DNA of 64,000 bases from the NCBI RefSeq assembly GCF_003790525.1, contig NZ_CP033635.1; one strand, 5' to 3'. The stretch comes from Escherichia coli (GTDB taxonomy: Bacteria; Pseudomonadota; Gammaproteobacteria; Enterobacterales; Enterobacteriaceae). Position 1 is the stretch's first letter; every line of letters starts with the position of its first letter. A model generated the notes under the pieces. It saw nothing but the letters and a program-made list of their open reading frames with translations. It searched no databases and had not been told where the DNA came from. The position numbers and the translations under genes are program-made. Shown one piece after another: positions 3,559 through 23,719 of the stretch.

Positions 3559-4815
3559 ATGTTCCGCCGTCTGCTTATCGCAACAGTCGTCGGTATTCTT
3601 GCGGCCTTTGCCGTTGCCGGGTTTCGTCATGCAATGCTGCTACTGGAGTGGTTGTTCCTCAATAATGACTCCGGCAGTCTGGTCAATGCAGCGACAAATC
3701 TTTCCCCATGGCGACGGTTGCTAACTCCGGCGCTCGGCGGACTGGCGGCGGGTTTGTTGCTGATGGGCTGGCAGAAATTTACCCAGCAACGCCCTCATGC
3801 GCCGACCGATTACATGGAAGCGTTGCAAACCGATGGTCAGTTCGATTACGCAGCAAGCCTGGTTAAATCGCTTGCCTCTCTGCTGGTAGTAACCAGCGGC
3901 AGTGCAATTGGTCGCGAAGGTGCGATGATTCTTTTAGCTGCCCTTGCCGCCTCCTGTTTTGCCCAACGTTTTACGCCACGCCAGGAGTGGAAATTATGGA
4001 TCGCCTGTGGAGCTGCGGCGGGAATGGCTGCGGCCTATCGAGCCCCGCTTGCTGGCAGTTTATTTATAGCCGAAGTGCTGTTTGGCACTATGATGTTGGC
4101 CTCTCTCGGCCCGGTGATTATTTCCGCCGTCGTGGCGTTGCTGGTTAGCAATCTGATTAATCATAGCGACGCGTTACTCTACAGCGTACAACTCTCAGTG
4201 ACGGTTCAGGCTCGTGACTATGCGCTGATTATCAGTACAGGTGTGCTGGCAGGTCTGTGCGGACCACTGTTGTTAACGTTAATGAACGCCTGTCATCGTG
4301 GATTTGTAAGTCTCAAACTTGCGCCGCCCTGGCAACTGGCACTGGGCGGGTTGATCGTGGGTCTGCTTTCCCTGTTCACACCTGCAGTGTGGGGCAACGG
4401 CTATAGCACCGTACAATCCTTTTTAACCGCCCCGCCACTGTTAATGATCATTGCCGGGATCTTCCTCTGTAAACTGTTTGCCGTGCTGGCGAGTAGTGGT
4501 TCTGGCGCGCCCGGTGGTGTCTTTACACCGACGCTATTTATCGGTCTTGCCATTGGCATGTTGTATGGTCGTAGCCTGGGATTATGGTTCCCTGATGGCG
4601 AAGAAATTACGCTTTTACTCGGATTGACCGGGATGGCGACACTATTGGCGGCAACCACGCACGCGCCGATTATGTCGACGTTGATGATATGTGAAATGAC
4701 CGGGGAGTATCAGCTACTCCCCGGTTTATTGATTGCCTGCGTAATTGCGTCGGTAATTTCGCGGACGTTACACCGTGACTCTATCTACCGCCAGCACACT
4801 GCGAAGCATAGCTAA
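3559..4815 (+). CDS. clcB: ClC-family voltage-gated chloride channel / H+:Cl- antiporter
   Basis: 418 aa from [11 protein letters not shown]..., with GSGIPE-like/GREG motifs and many TM segments. Track ORF has a 20-codon upstream extension. Confidence 0.9.
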
Positions 4816-11746: not shown

Positions 11747-12157
11747 TGTCCTTCTCCTGCAAGAGAATTATTTTAATTTTCGCTTAATTCAGCGAAACCA
11801 AAGTAAAGTGGTCAAGCCCCGCGCATAGCGCAAGCTTAAGCAGGAGAAAGGACTAAAGCGCGTTGCGCCAGTGCTGCTCACCTACGAGCAAGATAGTGGA
11901 TGAGGTACGAAGATGGGTAAATGTAGAAAATAACGTCCTGAACAAATTGTCCATAATATTACAATTATCCGCAGTGTTGCTTCTCGTCATCGCGGATGAT
12001 AATTGTCCTCGGTAGTTGAACACGCCTGATTTGTATCATAGCTTAAGAATTAACTCAAAATATTTTCACTTCTTTACCTGAGCGGTTTGATTTTCGTTAT
12101 GATGACGGAGCGAAAAAGACATTATTATTAGCAAAGGAAGAAAAAACGGGGACAAGC

Positions 12158-12322
12158 ATGGCAAAGCCGATCATCACGCTCAATGGCCTAAAAATCGTCA
12201 TTATGTTGGGAATGCTGGTCATTATTCTCTGCGGTATCCGTTTTGCCGCCGAGATCATCGTGCCGTTTATTCTCGCATTATTTATTGCTGTTATATATAA
12301 CTTATTTCGCTTAACTAATTGA
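12158..12322 (+). pseudogene. tqsA: tqsA 5' fragment (AI-2 exporter). The first ~46 codons are native, then 8 island-encoded codons and a stop.
   Basis: [45 protein letters not shown] matches the remembered TqsA N-terminus. The frame leaves tqsA sequence at 12294/12295. Confidence 0.9.
12286..12294 (+). repeat. attL core (TGCTGTTAT)
   Basis: Identical 9-mer at 23720..23728. The two tqsA halves rejoin in frame across it (..[11 protein letters not shown]..). Confidence 0.8.
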
Positions 12323-12365
12323 TTTAATTAAATAATTTGCACTACAAAAAGTGCCAAAAATCGCA

Positions 12366-12423
12366 AATTAACTACACCATTAACTACACCGTTCGGCGCA
12401 CTGTATGAAACAACGTGGAACAA
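12366..12423 (+). repeat. Arm module, left end: AATTAACTACACC ATTAACTACACC, then 19 nt, then ACAACGTGGAACAA
   Basis: The same two-part module recurs in the same orientation at 23567..23624, next to int. Probable arm-type Int/RDF binding sites. Confidence 0.6.
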
Positions 12424-13466
12424 ATAGACACAAGCGGCAGGCTATACCGTTATCATTTTTCAGCTATCCGTCATGAAGCTGGTGGATGATCACGGATAAC
12501 CAGGCATCTACAGCGCCTTAAAAAGCTGAACCCGACAAACATTTCTGCTTATCGGGTCCGATCGCTCTTTCTACTCGTGGCAGATGAGTTTACTAGGAAG
12601 GGGGGAACATTGTATCAGGCTATCCCCTTTCTGTGCTGATTCGGCTGGTGAATGATCTACTTGGGGCACTACACTTTTCGGATAGTGCGGGTATCCGGTT
12701 TTCTGCCTCATCGAATTTTAAGCCTTCTGACGGCCTGTATATCATTTCCTGTGGAGTTGCCGCCCTGATAGCGAATACTGCGGCAGCATGTGATTTACCC
12801 CCCGTTCTGTTGATGTTTGATGTGGCTGGTTGATGTGCTGCCATGTTTTCCGCCAATGGTGGAAAAGCCCACCAGCGCAACGCAGGACGCATAAAACCAT
12901 TGCGATGACTCTGGACGCAAAACCACGTTTAACGATGTTTTGCACTGAACCAGAATACTGTTCGTTTTTGTCTCGATGTCCGTACGTATTACGTCCGCAC
13001 CTAATCCGGCATCATGCCCACCAGCGTAACGCATTTTTTTAATTTCGTGGCTGTGCGTCCACCAGCTACGCCGGAATGGGGTATTCCGTTTCAACGGAAC
13101 AGGTATGACGAACATAATCGCACCTTCTCCCGAAAACGGTGCGACCTGCATCATCGAAATGGTGATTCAGCTACTCGGCGATTTTCACCATTCAGAATCT
13201 GGCGGGTGAGTTATCCAGCTTCCACCAATGGGGGATTCTGGAACAATCAACGGGTTACGCCTTATCAGCAAAAAAGCACATCAACTGTAAAGGAAATCGT
13301 TATGGTTGCTGGTGGGCTGCGTCACCATCATGGTGATGATGCTGTCCAGTCAGCCGGAACGGTTGAACAGGGTGGCTATGGGTCACTCTGTTGTGCGTTA
13401 TTTGCGTGATCCTGGTACGGGGTGACTATCTTTCAGATAGTCGGTTGCCTGGTTACACGAAAAAAT
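12424..13466. other. ORF-poor, Chi-rich segment at the integrase-distal end of the island
   Basis: Only short, mutually overlapping ORFs (131 aa or less) in all six frames. Five Chi octamers: + strand at 12478 and 13308; - strand at 12869, 13018 and 13059. 18-bp direct repeat GCCCACCAGCG(C/T)AACGCA at 12867 and 13016. Confidence 0.6.
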
Positions 13467-13838
13467 TTACTTCCTGCGTTTATCCTGCTTTGTATGCCCG
13501 TGCTGAATGCCCCGCAGTGGATCTTCTTTTTTCAGGTCGATCCCCATGTCCGTTAGTGTTTTTGTGGCGGCGGTTCTTATGGCACAAATCAGGTCTCTTT
13601 CCGGTTCCCGGGTTATGGTTGCCTTCCGGATGCATGCCGTTCGTCGTTCCGTTACATACTGACGCGCTTCATCACTTGCCGCCTGTTTCAGTAACTCACC
13701 CCAGCGATTAGCCGCCCGTCGCCATAAACCTTTCGCTTCCAGTTCTTCCGCTTTGTCATCATGCACCATAAGCATAATCCCATTGATACCTGTTAACTCT
13801 GAATGGTTGGTTTCTGTTCTTTTGATAATTTCCCGCAT
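13467..13838 (-). CDS. PerC-family transcriptional regulator (copy 2)
   Basis: Core MVHDDKAEELEAKGLWRRAANRWGELL is the PerC/Pch signature and parallels the paralog at 17352..17624. The internal ATG at 13769 (100 aa) may be the true start. Confidence 0.7.
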   Translation of the reverse strand: MREIIKRTETNHSELTGINGIMLMVHDDKAEELEAKGLWRRAANRWGELLKQAASDEARQYVTERRTACIRKATITREPERDLICAIRTAATKTLTDMGIDLKKEDPLRGIQHGHTKQDKRRK

Positions 13839-13840
13839 AG

Positions 13841-13872
13841 CTTATTGTATGACAGTACTGTCCCACAATAAG
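13841..13872. promoter_or_regulatory. 32-bp nested palindrome in the divergent perC2 / orf96 control region
   Basis: CTTATTGTatGACAGTACTGTCccACAATAAG. Overlaps the aaggag RBS of the 13884 ORF. Confidence 0.5.
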
Positions 13873-13883
13873 GAGTTGCACGC

Positions 13884-14174
13884 ATGAGAATGACTAGGCA
13901 CAAAAAACAGATTCTTGAACTCTACAAACCTGAGTATCGCGATTGGGTGCGGGTGGAGGCCGGAGATCCGCCTTTTGATGTTCGTGGTGTGACAGTGCTG
14001 CTCTATGGTTCCGAATATCGGCGATATCACATAGAGGCAACACGAAGGACGCTAAACGCTATGGTTCGTGATAAGTTGCTGGAGCGTGTGAAAGTCCGTG
14101 AGCCACGTTTTGATGTGCGTATTGGTGGCGATGGTGCGCATTGCACGGTAATCCGCTATGGCCTGGTAAGGTAA
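13884..14174 (+). CDS. Hypothetical protein, 96 aa (island cargo)
   Basis: ATG preceded by aaggag. No family recognised. Confidence 0.6.
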   Translation: MRMTRHKKQILELYKPEYRDWVRVEAGDPPFDVRGVTVLLYGSEYRRYHIEATRRTLNAMVRDKLLERVKVREPRFDVRIGGDGAHCTVIRYGLVR

Positions 14175-14204
14175 GCCATCGGGTAAATCAGATGATTAAA
14201 TCAC

Positions 14205-14226
14205 CAGAATGTAAATTTACATTCTG
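14205..14226. terminator. Perfect 22-bp palindrome between convergent ORFs
   Basis: cagaatgtaaatttacattctg. No clear T-tract. Confidence 0.4.
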
Positions 14227-14276
14227 CCAGCCACCAGCTACCCTCCTCAAAATTGAGGACCCTTTTTATCAACTGG

Positions 14277-14558
14277 TTACCGCCGCAACCGTTCCGGCTT
14301 CTTCCACTGATAAGTGTTTTTCGCGCTCTCCTGATACATCGCCACGCGTCGACGGTATGCCAGCAACTCTAGTACTCTGATTCGTATGTCGCGCATATCC
14401 ACGCCGTTAAGCTCAATACCATCACGGCGCATTACATCAGCAACAACACGCACATAATTTTCGGCGGTCACGCTGTCCGGCTGCGTGGCCTGTTCGTCAT
14501 GCTGCTGGCTGATTCCGGTAACGCGGCGGATTAATCCCAGTAGTTCGACTTCTGTCAT
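14277..14558 (-). CDS. Hypothetical protein, 93 aa
   Basis: Track ORF 14277..14756 runs through the cos/cosB DNA. The internal ATG at 14558 (MTEVELLGLIRRV...) lies just past cos copy 1. Confidence 0.55.
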   Translation of the reverse strand: MTEVELLGLIRRVTGISQQHDEQATQPDSVTAENYVRVVADVMRRDGIELNGVDMRDIRIRVLELLAYRRRVAMYQESAKNTYQWKKPERLRR

Positions 14559-14591
14559 TGTGCCCCCATCGCTCTGATAGTCTGGTGTCGT

Positions 14592-14656
14592 CGGGTCCTT
14601 TCCGGCATGTGGACCCGTTACGGGGCGTCGACCTCGCGCGTTTTCACTATTTATGA
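14592..14656 (+). other. Lambda-like cosQ-cosN, copy 1; predicted 12-nt cohesive end GGGCGTCGACCT at 14623..14634
   Basis: GGGTCCTTTCCGG..CCGTTACGGGGCGTCGACCTCGCGCGTTTTCACTATTTATGA closely parallels my recollection of lambda cos (..GGGTCCTTTCCGGTGATCCGACAGGTTACGGGGCGGCGACCTCGCGGGTTTTCGCTATTTATGAAAA). Confidence 0.8.
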
Positions 14657-14672
14657 AAATTTTTCGGGATCC

Positions 14673-14769
14673 ATGTCCGGTTTCTCTGCAAGTTAACCAT
14701 ATGAAAAATATAAAAACATGCTTTCCATGAACCGGACATGCGCAAAAAACAGACACTAAAACCGGACAT
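14673..14769 (+). repeat. cosB-like array: three AACCGGACAT sites (14673..14682 inverted, 14730..14739, 14760..14769) around an A/T-rich spacer
   Basis: Position just after cosN, and the one-inverted plus two-direct layout, mimic lambda R3-I1-R2-R1 with a different site sequence. Confidence 0.6.
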
Positions 14770-14837
14770 CGAACCAGTTAACCGAAAGTGTGCACAAATC
14801 ACATTCATTGCTGCGAGTGATTAACAAGTTATCGGCT

Positions 14838-15272
14838 TTACTGTTCTGTATCGGCTGATTGCTCCATGCTGGCACGGCGAACGCTTACGGCATGACGCCA
14901 CCCAGCCAGAAAGCCAGCCATTTTATTTCGTGCCTTGCTCACATCTTCCGGTGAATAGCCGTAAATATGCAAACCTTCATCAAATCGATGTTCTGTTTCT
15001 TCACTGGAGTACTCGTCACGCTCAGATGAAAGCAGCCTCGCAAACATAATTTTTTCCAGCGCACTGGTTTCTACGTGATATCCGATGGTCTGAAGATGGC
15101 TTTTACCTGAATACCAAAGCAATGTATGCCCGATGTGATAACCGCCAGACTTTCCGCGATCCGCATTAAGATACGGCATCCCCTGTTTGGTCCATGCGCG
15201 AATAGTGGTTCTGTTAACCTTGAAATGTTCAGCTATTTCCTGCTGACTTACAAAACAAGCTTTATCAATCAT
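14838..15272 (-). CDS. Nu1-like small terminase / packaging-specificity protein (N-terminal wHTH)
   Basis: VSQQEIAEHFKVNRTTIRAWTKQGMPYL aligns by eye with lambda Nu1 VNKKQLADIFGASIRTIQNWQEQGMPVL. Starts 67 nt downstream of cos copy 2, the lambda cos-Nu1 arrangement. The C-terminal half is not recognisably Nu1-like. Confidence 0.75.
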   Translation of the reverse strand: MIDKACFVSQQEIAEHFKVNRTTIRAWTKQGMPYLNADRGKSGGYHIGHTLLWYSGKSHLQTIGYHVETSALEKIMFARLLSSERDEYSSEETEHRFDEGLHIYGYSPEDVSKARNKMAGFLAGWRHAVSVRRASMEQSADTEQ

Positions 15273-15339
15273 AATGTTACCTTAACTGCATGGTTAAATA
15301 TCAATCAAGTGGTGGTGGTGTCACCTTCACGGAAAAACG

Positions 15340-15404
15340 TCATAAATAGCGAAAACGTGCGAGGTCGACGCCCCGTAACGGGTCCACATGCCGGAAAGGA
15401 CCCG
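15340..15404 (-). other. Lambda-like cosQ-cosN, copy 2 (inverted); cohesive-end sequence at 15362..15373
   Basis: Reverse complement of 14592..14656 with 2 mismatches in 65 nt. No AACCGGACAT sites between it and the Nu1-like start. Confidence 0.8.
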
Positions 15405-15429
15405 CAAAAAAAGCCGGATTTCTCCGGCC
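15405..15429 (-). terminator. Rho-independent terminator after the capsid operon
   Basis: Minus strand reads GCCGGA-gaaa-TCCGGC followed by TTTTTTT. Nearly identical hairpin at 17322..17345. Confidence 0.7.
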
Positions 15430-15502
15430 TTGTCTCAGATGGTTTTCAGTATGCGATAGATGTCGCCGTCATCGCCCTGGTTTGTGCCATCGTTCCCCCT
15501 GC

Positions 15503-15838
15503 TTATCGGGCCAGCGGCTGAACGGATACGCCGGAACCCGCAAAGGCGGCGCATTTTTTCGCATCGGTGTCGACGCTCTCAGGCCAGTTAACGGCGGCAA
15601 TATTGAATATCCCCGTCTTGTAACACTGTGCTGATTTCTGCTTTGACGTGTCCACAGGGTACGAGGTCAGATAAACAGCCTTGCCAGATTCCTTACCATC
15701 CCACGCCTTAAACTCGCCATTGTCTGCCAGCATCAGCGGGGTAAATTCCTGAATAACGCCAGCATCAGCGGCAAAATGTACCAGCGTCGTGGATACCTGT
15801 TGGCTGCCTGAAAATAACTCAATGTATGGAGCGTCCAT
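15503..15838 (-). CDS. Head decoration protein (lambda gpD-like)
   Basis: 111 aa. TPLMLADNGEFKAWDG and AAFAGSGVSV parallel gpD TPLMLDTSSRKLVAWDG and TAFAGTAISIV. Confidence 0.8.
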   Translation of the reverse strand: MDAPYIELFSGSQQVSTTLVHFAADAGVIQEFTPLMLADNGEFKAWDGKESGKAVYLTSYPVDTSKQKSAQCYKTGIFNIAAVNWPESVDTDAKKCAAFAGSGVSVQPLAR

Positions 15839-15849
15839 AGAATCCCCCG

Positions 15850-16905
15850 TTAAGCAATTTTGACGGTAACAAATTTGCGAATATCTGCCGGTACAGGCTG
15901 CGGTGCGCTGTGCGTCTGCACGTACTCAATCGCCGGATCGCCGTCCTCAATCCAGTTTTTCGGGTAGTACATGTTTTGCGTTGCGCCCGTTCTTACCGCT
16001 TCCTGATCCATAATCGCACCATATGCCACCAGCCCTTTATTGTTGGTGTTACCCAGGACCAGCAAATCAGGCTCAAGGAAATATTTTTCGGTCCCGTCGC
16101 TGTCAGTGTATTTGCCGGAATAGACGATAAGGGCCAGATCACCAAGATAGCCTTTAAAGCTCACCACTTCGCCCAGGTTTTTACAGGCCAGCTCGGCGGC
16201 GGATTCTGATCCACGGGAAAGATCGTACAGTTCACGGAATTTTTTAAAGCTGCGTAATGTGCGCCATACCTCACCGCCCATAATCATGACGTTGGCGGGG
16301 CAACCTGCCTGATCAGCATAAAGCTCGATGTCATAGATTGGGTCGTGCATGTCTTTATCCTGCTGGGACCATTTTTTACCACTGGCCTGCTGTATGATGC
16401 AGTTTTCCGGTATTTTCCAGTCGATTTCATAGCGTTCTATGCCTTCGCCCTCAATGATGTTTTTTCCGGTCGTTACCGCATTCACCGCCAGCCATTCCAC
16501 GCGCGCCTTAATGGCGTTTATCTGGCGGCGCATGTTGCCAGTAATCAGGCGCATACGGCGGTAAGTTGGATCGTTAAGCTGTGCCGGATCTTCTCCATCC
16601 ATGCGCATGATGGTCTTTGTTGGATCGATTTCGTGCTTTGGCTTCATGTAGCCTGGTTTAATCGTGCTGGTTTCGTACCCTTTATCGCGCTGGACCTGAC
16701 TACCCACCATAGGAGAACAGAACGCTGACATCGTAACCTCTTCAATGTCCAGGGTGTCCAGCATGATGTTTTGGGTGTTGAAGGTCGCCACGTTCGGGAA
16801 AAACAGCGTGGTAAACAGCGGACTAAATTTATATTCCGAAATATCCCCGCGATTCAGGTACGCGAAAAGCTGGTTAGTTGTAAGTGCCTTTGCTTTGCCT
16901 GTCAT
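15850..16905 (-). CDS. Major capsid protein (lambda gpE family)
   Basis: 351 aa. PGYMKPKHEIDP and YYPKNWIEDGDPA parallel gpE PGYVKPKHEVNP and RYPKNWVTTGDPA. Confidence 0.9.
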   Translation of the reverse strand: MTGKAKALTTNQLFAYLNRGDISEYKFSPLFTTLFFPNVATFNTQNIMLDTLDIEEVTMSAFCSPMVGSQVQRDKGYETSTIKPGYMKPKHEIDPTKTIMRMDGEDPAQLNDPTYRRMRLITGNMRRQINAIKARVEWLAVNAVTTGKNIIEGEGIERYEIDWKIPENCIIQQASGKKWSQQDKDMHDPIYDIELYADQAGCPANVMIMGGEVWRTLRSFKKFRELYDLSRGSESAAELACKNLGEVVSFKGYLGDLALIVYSGKYTDSDGTEKYFLEPDLLVLGNTNNKGLVAYGAIMDQEAVRTGATQNMYYPKNWIEDGDPAIEYVQTHSAPQPVPADIRKFVTVKIA

Positions 16906-18660: not shown

Positions 18661-18860
18661 CACCATCTCTCACTTTTACTACTCACTTTTTAAAGCGTCT
18701 CGCTTCGTCTCACTTGAGATTTTTGTGTTTTGTATGTGCATGTTTCATAAGTGTTTTTTCACTGCTCACTTTTGAGCATGTATACAGGTGAGAAAGTGAG
18801 TAATTGTGTTAATATTTTGTAAAAACCTCACCATTACTCACTTTTACTACTCACTTTTTA
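18661..18860. repeat. Putative origin of replication: CTCACTT iterons flanking an A/T-rich core
   Basis: CTCACTT at 18669, 18682, 18709, 18765, 18837 and 18850, with an inverted copy at 18794. 32-bp direct repeat at 18661..18692 and 18829..18860. Immediately 3' of the initiator gene. Confidence 0.7.
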
Positions 18861-22133: not shown

Positions 22134-22233
22134 TCACTATTTAAAGCGTTATTCGCTAATGTATAAAAAACCAGTTGAGCATTAAAAATCAGCAACTTAT
22201 AAATCTGTATACTTTTTGACCTCTTGTTCGTGG

Positions 22234-22267
22234 TTGTTTCACGTTGTTGTGTATTGTTGCACGTTGT
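22234..22267 (-). repeat. Two more ACAACGTGNAACAA motifs (22234..22247 and 22254..22267), 20 bp apart
   Basis: Same 14-mer as in both arm modules (12410 and 23611), here in the opposite orientation just downstream of int. Confidence 0.5.
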
Positions 22268-22315
22268 ATCTGTGCACTTATCCAGTATGCGCATACTGAA
22301 AAAACACGAAAAAAA

Positions 22316-23566
22316 TTATTTTCTTCTGGCTACTGGTAGCGTGGTTACGTTTTCATGTGCTCCCGCCAGTATCTCCAACCGCTCCACCCACATATCCAGC
22401 GCATTGCGTTTCGCATCCAGATAACGGGAATGATTATAAACTCGCTGCATTCCTGGCATCTGGTGGCCTGTAAGCTGCTCCACGACGTGAGGATCCACGC
22501 CTAAATCGTTCAGCATCGTTGTAAAGGTGCGCCGGATGTCATGCAGTGACCATTGAGGGTGTTTTAGCCTCCTGTGCGCTAATCTGCCGTACTGCGATAC
22601 GCTGGCCTCCTGTTTCACTTCCCCCAGTAATAAGCCCGTGTGCCTGTTCTGCTCCACCAGCCGCGTGACGAACGGCAGGATCGCTTCCGGTATGGGCCGG
22701 AATATTGCGACCTTCGTTTTGCTGTGCTCCTTCGGAACGGTCCAGAGCATTTCCGTGAAATCCCACTCCCCGATCTCCGATAACCTCAGTTCTACCGTCC
22801 TGGCTCCGAAGACAATCAGGAGGCGGATTAGTGCGACGTAGTAAGGGGAAAATATTTTTTTGTCCAGTGCCTGCAATAATTCGCCCAGTTCTTTGGTGCT
22901 TAAGACACGTTCGCTTATATCCGGTTTTTTCCCAACGTCCGCCACGTTCAGATCGTCCAGAACGTTGCTGATTGCATAGCGCCGCCTCCGGCAAAACTTA
23001 AGCGCCTGTTTGCACGCCTGTAGCACGAATCCGGCAGTAACAGGCGTTCGCTTTGCCACCCGATCAAAACAGGCCAGCCAGTGCCGTAGCTCGCATTTAT
23101 CCAGCGGCATAGCACCAATGTGCTGTATTACGTGATTATTAAGTCGCCTTTTCAGGGCGATATAATCCACGCGGTTTTCCTTTACGTAAGACTCAAGCCA
23201 GTAGGTGAGCGCATCTCCAACCGTTACAGGCTTTAACGCTTCCTGCATGGTGTAATTCATCTCATGACGTGGATTTTTCCCCTCAGCCAGCCATGCGCGA
23301 CACTGGGCGGCTTTTTCCCTGGCTGATTTCAGGCTCAGATCAGGATAATTTCCCAGCTTAATACGTTCCGGTCGTGTCTCTCTTCCCGTTCCGGCCCTGT
23401 AAGTGAAATACCAGGTTAAAAGGCCGCTGGTTGAATGCCTGACGCTCAGATTTCCACCGTCATTAAGAAAGGCTGTTTTTTGGGCGGGTGTGCCGTTGAT
23501 TTTCCTTAGCTGTGTATCGCTCAGCTTGTTAAGTGCTCTGGTCATAATTTTGAATCCGGTCATCAC
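22316..23566 (-). CDS. int: Tyrosine recombinase, P4-type integrase (N-terminal arm-binding domain plus catalytic domain)
   Basis: 416 aa. LSDTQLRK N-terminus, catalytic HDIRRTF...GHQ..MQRVYNHSRY. Alternative start at 23545. Confidence 0.9.
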   Translation of the reverse strand: MMTGFKIMTRALNKLSDTQLRKINGTPAQKTAFLNDGGNLSVRHSTSGLLTWYFTYRAGTGRETRPERIKLGNYPDLSLKSAREKAAQCRAWLAEGKNPRHEMNYTMQEALKPVTVGDALTYWLESYVKENRVDYIALKRRLNNHVIQHIGAMPLDKCELRHWLACFDRVAKRTPVTAGFVLQACKQALKFCRRRRYAISNVLDDLNVADVGKKPDISERVLSTKELGELLQALDKKIFSPYYVALIRLLIVFGARTVELRLSEIGEWDFTEMLWTVPKEHSKTKVAIFRPIPEAILPFVTRLVEQNRHTGLLLGEVKQEASVSQYGRLAHRRLKHPQWSLHDIRRTFTTMLNDLGVDPHVVEQLTGHQMPGMQRVYNHSRYLDAKRNALDMWVERLEILAGAHENVTTLPVARRK

Positions 23567-23624
23567 AATTAACTACACCATTAACTACACCGATCGTTGC
23601 ACAAAGGGCTACAACGTGAAACAA
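23567..23624 (+). repeat. Arm module, right end (AATTAACTACACCATTAACTACACC, then 19 nt, then ACAACGTGAAACAA)
   Basis: Begins 1 nt upstream of the int start codon. Direct repeat of 12366..12423. Confidence 0.6.
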
Positions 23625-23719
23625 GCTGGAACAAGAAAAATCACAAATTTGTTTATAATCAAAAACATAATGCACAACCTGAAACATTATGAAACGGCAA
23701 AAAACACTAATTGATAAAG

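Follow-up and report, generated by a model that had tools for sequence, protein, structure and literature searches.

A Chi-dense, apparently gene-free end in a putative EcCICFT073-type phage-inducible chromosomal island of Escherichia coli

Introduction

Chi reportedly protects linear or rolling-circle DNA from RecBCD, a finding that is ascribed to Dabert, Ehrlich and Gruss in 1992 and to Kuzminov, Schabtach and Stahl in 1994, working with engineered plasmids. Lambdoid phages that are without a recombination (Rec) module are rich in Chi, with most sites oriented so as to act on RecBCD that comes in by the free right end at cos, and with the sites clustered terminally (Bobay et al., 2013, PMC3784561; PMC12315714, dated 2025). 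Phage LLS, for example, grows better with RecBCD (PMC12315714). Neither ‘satellite’ nor ‘PICI’ (phage-inducible chromosomal island) occurs in PMC12315714, and literature searches that combined Chi with PICIs or satellites returned general reviews only, with no report of Chi enrichment found for PICIs. Here we analyse one end of an 11.4-kb island (∼12296 to ∼23700) that sits inside tqsA of the Escherichia coli chromosome, in a 64-kb stretch of contig NZ_CP033635.1 (the window), whose numbering is used throughout. The segment under study, 12424-13466, is the DNA from the attL arm to the stop codon (13467) of the second copy of perC. An initial annotation, made from the letters alone, had described it as poor in open reading frames (ORFs), had placed it at the cargo end of a PICI, and had proposed a decayed gene, a structured RNA or a dedicated Chi cluster.

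In P4, crr is a cis replication region, a second set of iterons far from the origin of replication (ori). It is mentioned in the description of EcCICFT073 (PMC6092414), a PICI located beside phoQ in strain CFT073 whose cos1 and cos2 are functional (PMC6092414, PMC6739421). The island studied here appears from its sequence to be a PICI of this EcCICFT073 type, with Rpp and cos, because its stretch 14267-15493 shares 94% identity with the rppA/cos region of EcCICFT073, the Rpp protein has a TerS-like N-terminus, and the gene order matches. It has an integrase gene with flanking att repeats or arm sites (int; TTAACTACACC x2 blocks at both island ends), an AlpA regulator, a replication protein of its own (annotated as a RepA-family helicase) with an adjacent iteron ori, and an rpp gene with lambda-like cosN sites.

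Results

Chi is the commonest octamer of the island and is densest at its end

The initial annotation had counted five Chi sites (GCTGGTGG) in 840 bp of the segment, and all five were found at that density. Chi was the commonest octamer in the segment (five copies, against three for the runner-up), and it also ranked first in the whole island (16 against 7) and in the island with the segment left out (11 against 7). The island holds 16 of the 22 Chi sites of the window, 12 on the minus strand, which is the sense strand of its genes, and four on the plus strand; six are found in the 52.6 kb of chromosomal flanks, where the octamer ranks 668th. Dinucleotide shuffles of the window gave 2.25 Chi per 64 kb, which corresponds to ∼0.04 in a segment of 1.04 kb, and the rate seen in the flanks would predict ∼0.12, as compared to the five observed. 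At the rate of the rest of the island (11 in 10.2 kb), 1.1 sites would be expected (Poisson P ∼0.006, or ∼0.03 when the two Chi that lie inside an 18-bp direct repeat are counted as one). This repeat, noted earlier at 12867 and 13016, was confirmed, with 94% identity between its copies.

We also examined the genes of the island. Its 18 coding sequences (CDS) contain seven sense Chi, as compared to 1.1 ± 0.9 under synonymous-codon shuffling (1000 shuffles, maximum 4), indicating that the excess does not come from amino-acid or codon composition. The Chi cluster of the segment is apparently the densest part of an island-wide enrichment that looks selected, and Chi looks to be the sole feature of the segment with the appearance of selection. 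The suggestion of a dedicated Chi cluster or RecBCD-modulating element therefore holds for the cluster, and a function is plausible, but ‘dedicated’ does not apply to what is the peak of an island-wide enrichment.

For comparison, E. coli genomes, IMG/VR and metagenomes yielded over 25 homologous end regions (the relatives; locus numbers such as L002 precede coordinates that lie outside the window). Chi is the commonest octamer in EcCICFT073 (11 against 6) and in the relatives L012, L015, L025 and L027, and it is second or third in L011 and L013. Relatives of the capsid-forming (cf-PICI) kind share the enrichment. A lambdoid prophage at icd of CFT073 (L033 22300-45001), 8 kb from EcCICFT073, encodes Gam, Bet and Exo and has no Chi in 22.7 kb. 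The terminal kilobase of the relatives holds two to five Chi at conserved positions (+,-,-,+), with ∼1 per 0.7-1.2 kb elsewhere in the island, and this four-Chi order recurs in islands at smrA, yifB, yejO, thiM and other sites. As read from the sequences, consensus around the octamers reaches no more than a base or two outward.

When the orientation rule of PMC12315714 was applied, the cos before rpp (15362, minus strand; collinear with cosN-cosB-Nu1 of lambda) would make the 12 minus-strand Chi ‘active’. Twelve of the 16 island sites are thus in the active orientation relative to this rpp-proximal cos, which is one of two inverted cos, and the densest cluster is of mixed orientation.

The segment is a mosaic built on a layout common to its relatives

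The islands of the relatives are located at smrA, yifB, yejO, thiM, clpS, tRNA-Ile and phoQ, and are of the Rpp type as well as capsid-forming (cf-PICI-like). Every relative has ∼0.5-1.4 kb without a conserved ORF at this position, usually left blank by the Prokaryotic Genome Annotation Pipeline (PGAP). The outer part of their common layout runs from the att arm through a Chi(+), a small hairpin and a Chi(-) in the loop of a plus-strand terminator to a T7 run, and is followed by a bipartite iteron cluster of three GCGGGTTA, a 75-bp AT-rich spacer and three TAACCCGC. The inner part consists of a block, R1, that lies between a Chi(-) and a Chi(+), an insert of 138-180 bp, a second block, R2, and perC. 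As compared to this layout, the window has gained an insertion of 506 bp, has lost the iteron region (a deletion of ∼365 bp, joined at a GTGG microhomology), and is without the R1-R2 insert. The full arrangement of ∼1.2 kb was found in three of 5,426 complete E. coli genomes. The features of the segment and its surroundings are collected in Table 1.

Table 1. Features of the segment and of the neighbouring island DNA, in window coordinates
Feature	Coordinates	Strand	Remarks
attL junction and P' arm	12296..12440		Overlaps segment start; tandem TTAACTACACC integrase arm-type sites at 12368-12390
Conserved Chi(+) block AAGCTGGTGGATGATCACGGATAAC	12464..12501	+	Chi at 12478-12485; 92-100% identity in nearly all relatives
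Chi sites of the segment, GCTGGTGG	12478, 12869, 13018, 13059, 13308	+, -, -, -, +	
Lineage-specific patchwork insertion, 506 bp	12502..13007		Interrupts the Chi-pair hairpin, 20 bp of which it replaces; from alignment with relatives
Terminator module common with phage P1	12519..12589	-	86% identical to the P1 rlfB/pmgF convergent intergenic region
Staggered ORFs	12620..12892, 12742..12945, 12795..13154	-	
Staggered ORFs	12633..12833, 12830..13042, 13014..13409	+	
Copy of 87-bp module	12825..12911		88-95% identical to L002 5314-5400 and equivalents in L003, L007-L010
ORF6N-type antirepressor relic AGLGADVIRTDIETKTNS, 18 aa	12957..13010	-	tblastn against phi467 ORF6N protein, 67% over 18 aa; DNA match too
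Decayed plus-strand terminator	13008..13050	+	GCATCATGC-CCACCA-GCGTAACGC then T7; holds Chi(-) 13018-25
Conserved non-coding block R1	13047..13345		Bounded by inverted Chi pair 13059-66 (-) / 13308-15 (+)
Ant-like relic, 27 aa	13230..13310	+	Resembles N-terminal part of 933W Ant antirepressor; tblastn 44% over 27 aa
perC-proximal block R2	13342..13466	-	Directly 3' of perC copy 2 stop; 94-98% identical in relatives
Lambda-like cosN GGGCGTCGACCT	14623-14634, 15362-15373	+, -	Each with 1 mismatch to lambda
78-nt inverted repeat	14592-14669, 15327-15404		Arms 91% complementary, each with one cosN; flanks rpp
rpp	14838..15272	-	144 aa; N-terminus matches TerS PHROGs
int	22232..23461		PGAP call

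At the outer end, 12366-12434 is repeated at 77% at the opposite end of the island (23567-23635), beside int. Islands at other att sites have kept the attL arm block, which matches the end of EcCICFT073 with 94% identity. The Chi(+) block next to it forms, in the relatives, the left arm of a hairpin of ∼65 nt closed by Chi(+)/Chi(-) pairing (in L002 3120-3190, -31.1 kcal/mol, z -5.4). The insertion that splits this hairpin in the window is itself composite. Its pieces are found elsewhere as short fragments only (72-95% identity, mostly unannotated); a search of E. coli genomes with the unique 12495-12830 part gave short pieces at 72-89%, again mostly unannotated, and no intact gene, and a search of a phage collection with the segment returned fragments of 31-71 bp only. 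The module common with P1 holds a strong minus-strand intrinsic terminator (stem 12528-12559 with 14 pairs, T-run 12518-12527; -22.9 kcal/mol, z -5.4). Nearly all island genes lie on this strand, and downstream of perC copy 2 it is the first terminator to be met. The 87-bp module lies, in the relatives, upstream of the homologue of the 14277..14558 gene, and 12975-13012 is copied from it too. The copy in the segment contains a degenerate Chi, GCTGGTTG, at 12825, a palindrome, TTTTCCGCCAATGGTGGAAAA, at 12848-12868 and the Chi(-) of 12869-12876; the first octamer is a perfect Chi in those relatives. A palindrome of ∼20 bp, TTCC(N)CCAATGG(N)GGAA, recurs at 12848-12868 and 13216-13236 as well as in L002 (5336), L006-type loci and L033, and in some copies its arms change together (CCACC/GGTGG, CCCCC/GGGGG, CCATC/GGTGG).

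The decayed terminator serves also as the right arm of the split hairpin and as the second copy of the 18-bp repeat. It is kept at 88-92% in the relatives, and a relative's copy folds at -11.7 kcal/mol (z -3.3), as compared to -5.9 kcal/mol (z -1.1) for that of the window. R1, which follows it, is present in 187 E. coli genomes and also in viral and metagenome contigs. Its opening ∼95 nt (13047-13140) are ∼98% conserved, even in islands of the cf-PICI type whose adjoining gene is 81% identical, and contain the perfect palindrome TTCCGTT-TC-AACGGAA. The middle ∼60 nt of R1 are a mosaic of three haplotypes, and a further palindrome, CC(N)CC-AAT-GG(N)GG, is found at 13219-13233. The insert that separates R1 from R2 in most relatives (L002 3880-4017, against 13341/13345 in the window) contains a terminator-like hairpin, AAACCGGGAATCTCCGGTTT. 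A long local hairpin of the window (13295-13360) is not conserved, because the insert that is missing here is present in most relatives. At the point equal to 13345, L003 (A36; ∼3990-4030) and L011 have a tetranucleotide microsatellite, (CCAG)n. In L011, GCCAGCCA occurs 16 times, more often than any other octamer, and one CCAGTCAGCC is left in the window. R2 contains the hairpin GACTATCT-GAAA-GATAGTC (minus-strand reading), without a T-run, that had been pointed out earlier at 13424-13442 and that folds at -9.2 kcal/mol (z -7.2). In L026 (∼1500-1560) the GACTATCT/AGATAGTC hairpin has its loop reverse-complemented (GAA for TTC) and lies between other flanks, which suggests that the palindrome has been inverted or serves as a recombination joint.

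Several edges of homology blocks coincide with Chi or lie within 3 nt of it, namely the starts at 12825, 12869 and 13059/13060 and the ends at 12485, 12488, 12872 and 12876. By a rough count, ∼9-10 of ∼50 distinct edges are at Chi, as compared to ∼3-4 expected, and the edges are not independent of one another. These coincidences in sequence are suggestive of Chi octamers as recombination joints, either through microhomology or as hotspots. Mosaicism extends beyond the segment. The motif ATCAAC(G/T)GGTTA, which fits the integration host factor (IHF) consensus WATCAANNNNTTR, occurs at 13246-13257 and 14268-14279, with three copies in L033 13655-13850. Copies of it bracket a module made up of perC copy 2 and a 96-aa gene (13265-14267) that is absent from EcCICFT073, which suggests that the module was inserted between repeats of the motif. 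A search of a genome contig collection for loci related through PerC found none, and a 21-mer scan of the same collection gave one chance match, in a Bacteroidetes metagenome-assembled genome, with no wider similarity.

No gene is evident in the segment

As the initial annotation had it, the longest ORF of the segment has 131 aa, six ORFs of 66-131 aa overlap one another on both strands, and base composition is ordinary (GC 48-51%); the T7 at 13034 and the C6 at 12798 can be read directly from the sequence. None of the ORFs matched Pfam or PHROGs. When the two longest were compared with 5.8 billion proteins, each had 6-20 matches, all of them Escherichia ‘hypothetical’ fragments, which share the translation of invariant DNA and then diverge in their C-termini with the neighbouring DNA block. 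Their clusters at 90% identity have 12 and 4 members, E. coli entries only. Between relatives, R1 shows indels of 1, 2 and 3 nt and three swapped haplotypes, and hence has no conserved reading frame. A frame conserved in relatives, or homology to a family over most of the length, was found for no ORF. PGAP places two hypothetical proteins here (WP_164473241.1 at 12795..13115, minus strand; WP_123891624.1 at 13206..13409, plus strand), and the exact sequences occur on 477 and 328 contigs of a protein collection. Both are probably spurious calls in non-coding DNA.

The integrase-distal placement of the segment was borne out, but no cargo gene is present at that place. A cargo gene inactivated by frameshift finds no counterpart in any relative with an intact ORF, and a clean single ORF, the sign of a plain pseudogene, is missing from relatives that are likewise CDS-free here. 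A decayed cargo gene was therefore rejected on account of the CDS-free relatives, the frame-breaking indels and the block mosaicism, with the exception of two tiny relics. The idea of decay thus survives as gene debris, ORF6N-like and Ant-like (Table 1), and not as a single decayed gene. The tblastn match of the Ant-like relic has E 0.005 against a small target, its similarity ends inside the Chi at 13308, and a DNA match of 31 bp to ant is found in more than 250 Stx phages.

RNA structure and transcription

The proposal of a non-coding RNA locus gained no positive support. Rfam 15 covariance models gave no match at E up to 1 across 12000-14200, and a scan for sigma-70-like promoters found none, as compared to 3.4 expected by chance. 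Relative to shuffles, 13040-13466 folds with z -4.3 on the minus and -5.5 on the plus strand, and 12424-13045 with z -3.0 on the minus strand. RNAalifold analysis of nine distinct R1 sequences gave a covariation term of only -0.39 with two of 82 pairs compensatory; in this fold the two Chi that bound R1 pair as a 10-bp stem. Low z on both strands fits inverted repeats at the level of DNA as well as it fits RNA. Since no terminator interrupts the leftward operon from the stop of perC copy 2 down to 12559, ∼0.9 kb of the segment is probably transcribed as read-through up to the terminator at 12528-12559.

Packaging sites, iterons and neighbouring genes

No cosN-like 12-mer was found in 12424-13466 at up to two mismatches. 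The segment was rejected as a cos, since both cosN copies flank rpp instead; in both copies the cosB side faces inward to rpp. The island's own ori consists of six ACTCACTTTT iterons at 18667-18858, and scans of the segment for ACTCACTTTT and GCGGGTTA found none. The confinement of ACTCACTTTT to 18667-18858 led us to reject the segment as an origin or crr of this island. A XerCD/cer-like site at 13133-13165 was also rejected; it has by eye 7/11 matches per arm and lies inside a haplotype-variable sub-block.

Most relatives have two ori-like iteron clusters (three to four GCGGGTTA, an AT-rich spacer and three TAACCCGC, for example L002 3313-3465), one beside the replication gene and the other in the terminal non-coding region ∼9 kb away (L012 475-605 and 9640-9770; L013, L015 and others). 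In L012 and L013 the terminal iterons repeat those of the true ori, which adjoins a 712-aa replication gene, and the terminal cluster of the relatives would therefore be a second, crr-like set. In L011, which has the RepA replicon of this island, the terminal iterons are decayed. It appears from these sequences that the present island has lost the second, ori-like cluster and that its RepA-type replicon uses different iterons.

Strain PKF11 holds an identical copy of the island, and its PGAP annotation was used for gene names. The genes are those of an integrase, AlpA, YlcI/YnfO, an Icd-like protein, DUF4222, a RepA-family helicase, SSB, PerC, major capsid, head decoration, four hypothetical proteins and the second PerC. 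No Gam, Exo, Bet, Erf or Sak-type gene is found in this annotation, in which SSB is the only related entry and whose small hypothetical genes were not all searched with profiles, so that the island appears to be without a recombination module. EcCICFT073 has been described as being without capsid morphogenesis genes (PMC6092414); both it and the present island have genes annotated as lambda-type major capsid and head decoration (L033 10669-12071, and 15503..16905 on the minus strand, respectively). The 96-aa ORF, on the plus strand, and perC copy 2 are divergent, and their intervening promoter region contains a near-perfect palindrome of 32 bp, CTTATTGTATGACAGTACTGTCCCACAATAAG, at 13841-13872, which is operator-like.

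Discussion

We consider it fairly probable that the segment is the non-coding, integrase-distal end of an EcCICFT073-type (RppA) PICI, a gene-free recombinational patchwork of cis modules in which Chi is the feature that looks selected. The patchwork would be composed of the outer attL arm, a minus-strand terminator, a decayed plus-strand terminator, palindromes, the debris of two antirepressor-type genes and the conserved block of ∼420 bp beside perC. The minus-strand terminator would end the leftward island operon ahead of host DNA. RecBCD would enter at free double-strand ends after cutting at the two oppositely oriented cos, or after linear injection, and correctly oriented Chi would switch it from degradation to RecA loading; DNA would be protected, and recombination into packageable concatemers promoted, as in Rec-less, Chi-rich lambdoid phages. 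Such a function of Chi in this island is plausible on the sequence evidence. The gene-borne Chi, mostly on the minus strand, would serve one direction. On a leftward path from either cos, RecBCD would encounter 14231 (inactive) and then, as its first active sites, 13308 and 12478, with the next ∼9 kb on. We infer that this leftward path provides a rationale for the plus-strand Chi of the segment; Chi of opposite orientation in the non-coding end can be rationalised because the genes point one way and there are two inverted cos (PMC6092414). As a by-product, a stretch so dense in Chi may be a hotspot of module exchange, which would result in the mosaicism of the segment. It is possible, but in our view doubtful, that the matter goes further, with PICIs of this family depending on the RecBCD-Chi system of the host and the CDS-free end being a selected cis ‘Chi cassette’, whose two orientations match the inverted cos and which protects linear or rolling-circle DNA, primes concatemers and provides joints for swaps of end modules. 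Chi content would in that case be a trait of satellite counter-defence and evolvability that has not been described for PICIs.

Several observations weigh against giving Chi this role. The five sites are not independent of one another, since two of them lie inside the 18-bp duplication and two pairs form the arms of inverted repeats. Some Chi could stem from hairpin or terminator structure and not from a Chi role. For RecBCD entering at the rpp-proximal cos, the three minus-strand Chi of the segment come last, not first. The strand bias is not general, with 12 minus and four plus in the island and 5 and 6 in EcCICFT073. The near-invariance of the opening ∼95 nt of R1, with structure z of only -0.1 and -1.5, falls outside a Chi account. 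Finally, the helpers lambda and phi80 encode Gam, which would make Chi irrelevant during their induction.

A competing view is that the segment is functionless debris of recombination, a scar of module exchange on which Chi are passengers of duplicated modules, terminator loops and inverted repeats. The rarity of the full arrangement (3/5,426 genomes), the 506-bp insert and ∼365-bp deletion, the two gene relics, the piece of P1 intergenic DNA and the placement of two Chi within the 18-bp repeat are all as such a scar would have them, and block edges that fall so often exactly on Chi (12825, 12869, 13059/60, 12485, 12488, 13308) may mean that Chi is microhomology only. However, Chi is enriched island-wide, synonymous sites included, which argues for selection for Chi on this element; four Chi positions are kept across islands whose intervening DNA differs; the octamers have no extended consensus around them, so that the octamer itself is the shared unit; and the density exceeds even that of the Chi-rich rest of the island. 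We therefore regard debris alone as rather unlikely. A structured RNA, either as a long 3' untranslated region of perC copy 2 or as an independent, regulatory or structured transcript, would account for fold energies far under those of shuffles, for the probable transcription of ∼0.9 kb downstream of perC copy 2, and for compensatory changes in small hairpins (CCACC/GGTGG against CCCCC/GGGGG in R1; CCGATATGG/CCATATCGG against CCGATACCG/CGGTATCGG in relatives). It is nevertheless improbable in the light of the Rfam and promoter results and the low covariation (-0.39, 2/82). In addition, the 138-180-bp insert and haplotype swaps disrupt the window's long hairpins in relatives, the best-conserved stretch of R1 is not unusually structured, and inverted repeats in DNA would give low z on both strands.

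Two further explanations have very little in their favour. That a single accessory or anti-phage gene was killed here by frameshifts is very improbable: ORFs do overlap on both strands, PGAP does call two hypothetical CDS in the identical strain, short ORF6N-like and Ant-like relics are present, and a KilA-N CDS of strain EC12 terminates within the shared block, but the relics, of 18 and 27 aa, come from different families on opposite strands, no intact homologue exists in any relative or among the 5.8 billion proteins, Pfam and PHROGs give no signal, and the relatives are CDS-free too. Slightly less credible still, and already largely refuted by the sequence, is a cis packaging or replication site, be it a cos/pac or a crr-like second iteron set for the island's own machinery. 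The segment has the right position at the island end, most relatives bear ori-like iterons exactly here, and a motif resembling the IHF consensus, ATCAACGGGTTA, lies at 13246; yet both cosN are at 14623 and 15362, and neither ACTCACTTTT nor GCGGGTTA iterons occur in the segment.

As a locus, then, the segment is an ordinary non-coding mosaic end and not hidden cargo, and its value for annotation is that two PGAP ‘hypothetical proteins’ are probably spurious. The Chi signal across the satellite adds modestly to a phenomenon known from phages, in that the dichotomy of lambdoid phages, to manipulate or to supersede host recombination, would extend to phage satellites. The Chi-rich EcCICFT073 and the Chi-free prophage encoding Gam provide a side-by-side case of this dichotomy between Chi and Rec module. 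A selected role of Chi predicts that satellite transfer depends on RecBCD and Chi when the helper leaves RecBCD unblocked. If this is true, Chi content would affect the spread between strains of islands that bear virulence and defence genes and would help to explain mosaic ends.

Among known systems, P4 crr resembles the state of most relatives, whose terminal region appears from sequence to repeat the ori iterons, set out as three direct GCGGGTTA, a 75-bp AT-rich spacer and three inverted copies. The island of the window, however, has lost this cluster, so the likeness explains the CDS-free end of the family and not of this copy. EcCICFT073 (Fillol-Salom et al., 2018, 2019; PMC6092414, PMC6739421) is closer. 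It shares the order int, alpA, icd-like, DUF4222, replication, ssb, perC, capsid, decoration and rppA (144 aa), the two inverted cosN around rpp, 94% identity over 14267-15493 and in the att arm, and, in the non-coding end, the TTCCACCAATGGTGGAA palindrome and the GGGGGATT.TGGAA.AATCAACGGGTTA module. Unlike the present island, it lies beside phoQ, has a primase-type replicon and contains neither perC copy 2 nor the 96-aa gene. The non-coding end of EcCICFT073 is of ∼0.5 kb with one Chi, whereas that of the window is of 1.1 kb with five Chi and a different mosaic.

Engineered plasmids protected by Chi resemble the island in being small replicons with Chi in the proper orientation and without a RecBCD inhibitor of their own, and differ in that the Chi of the island are natural, numerous and partly at synonymous positions. 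From the Rec-less lambdoid phages the island differs in being an 11-kb satellite with two inverted cos and not a phage, and in having its densest Chi in non-coding DNA, ∼1.3-2.2 kb from one cos and ∼9 kb from the other. Its cluster, moreover, holds both orientations, as compared to a cluster of one orientation at the right end of the phages, and EcCICFT073 is without strand bias. What the island has in common with these phages is a lambda-type cos, an annotation without Gam- or Red-like genes, Chi as the commonest octamer, 12 of its 16 Chi in the active orientation with respect to the cos ahead of the TerS-like gene, and, in CFT073, a neighbouring Gam+ prophage that is free of Chi.

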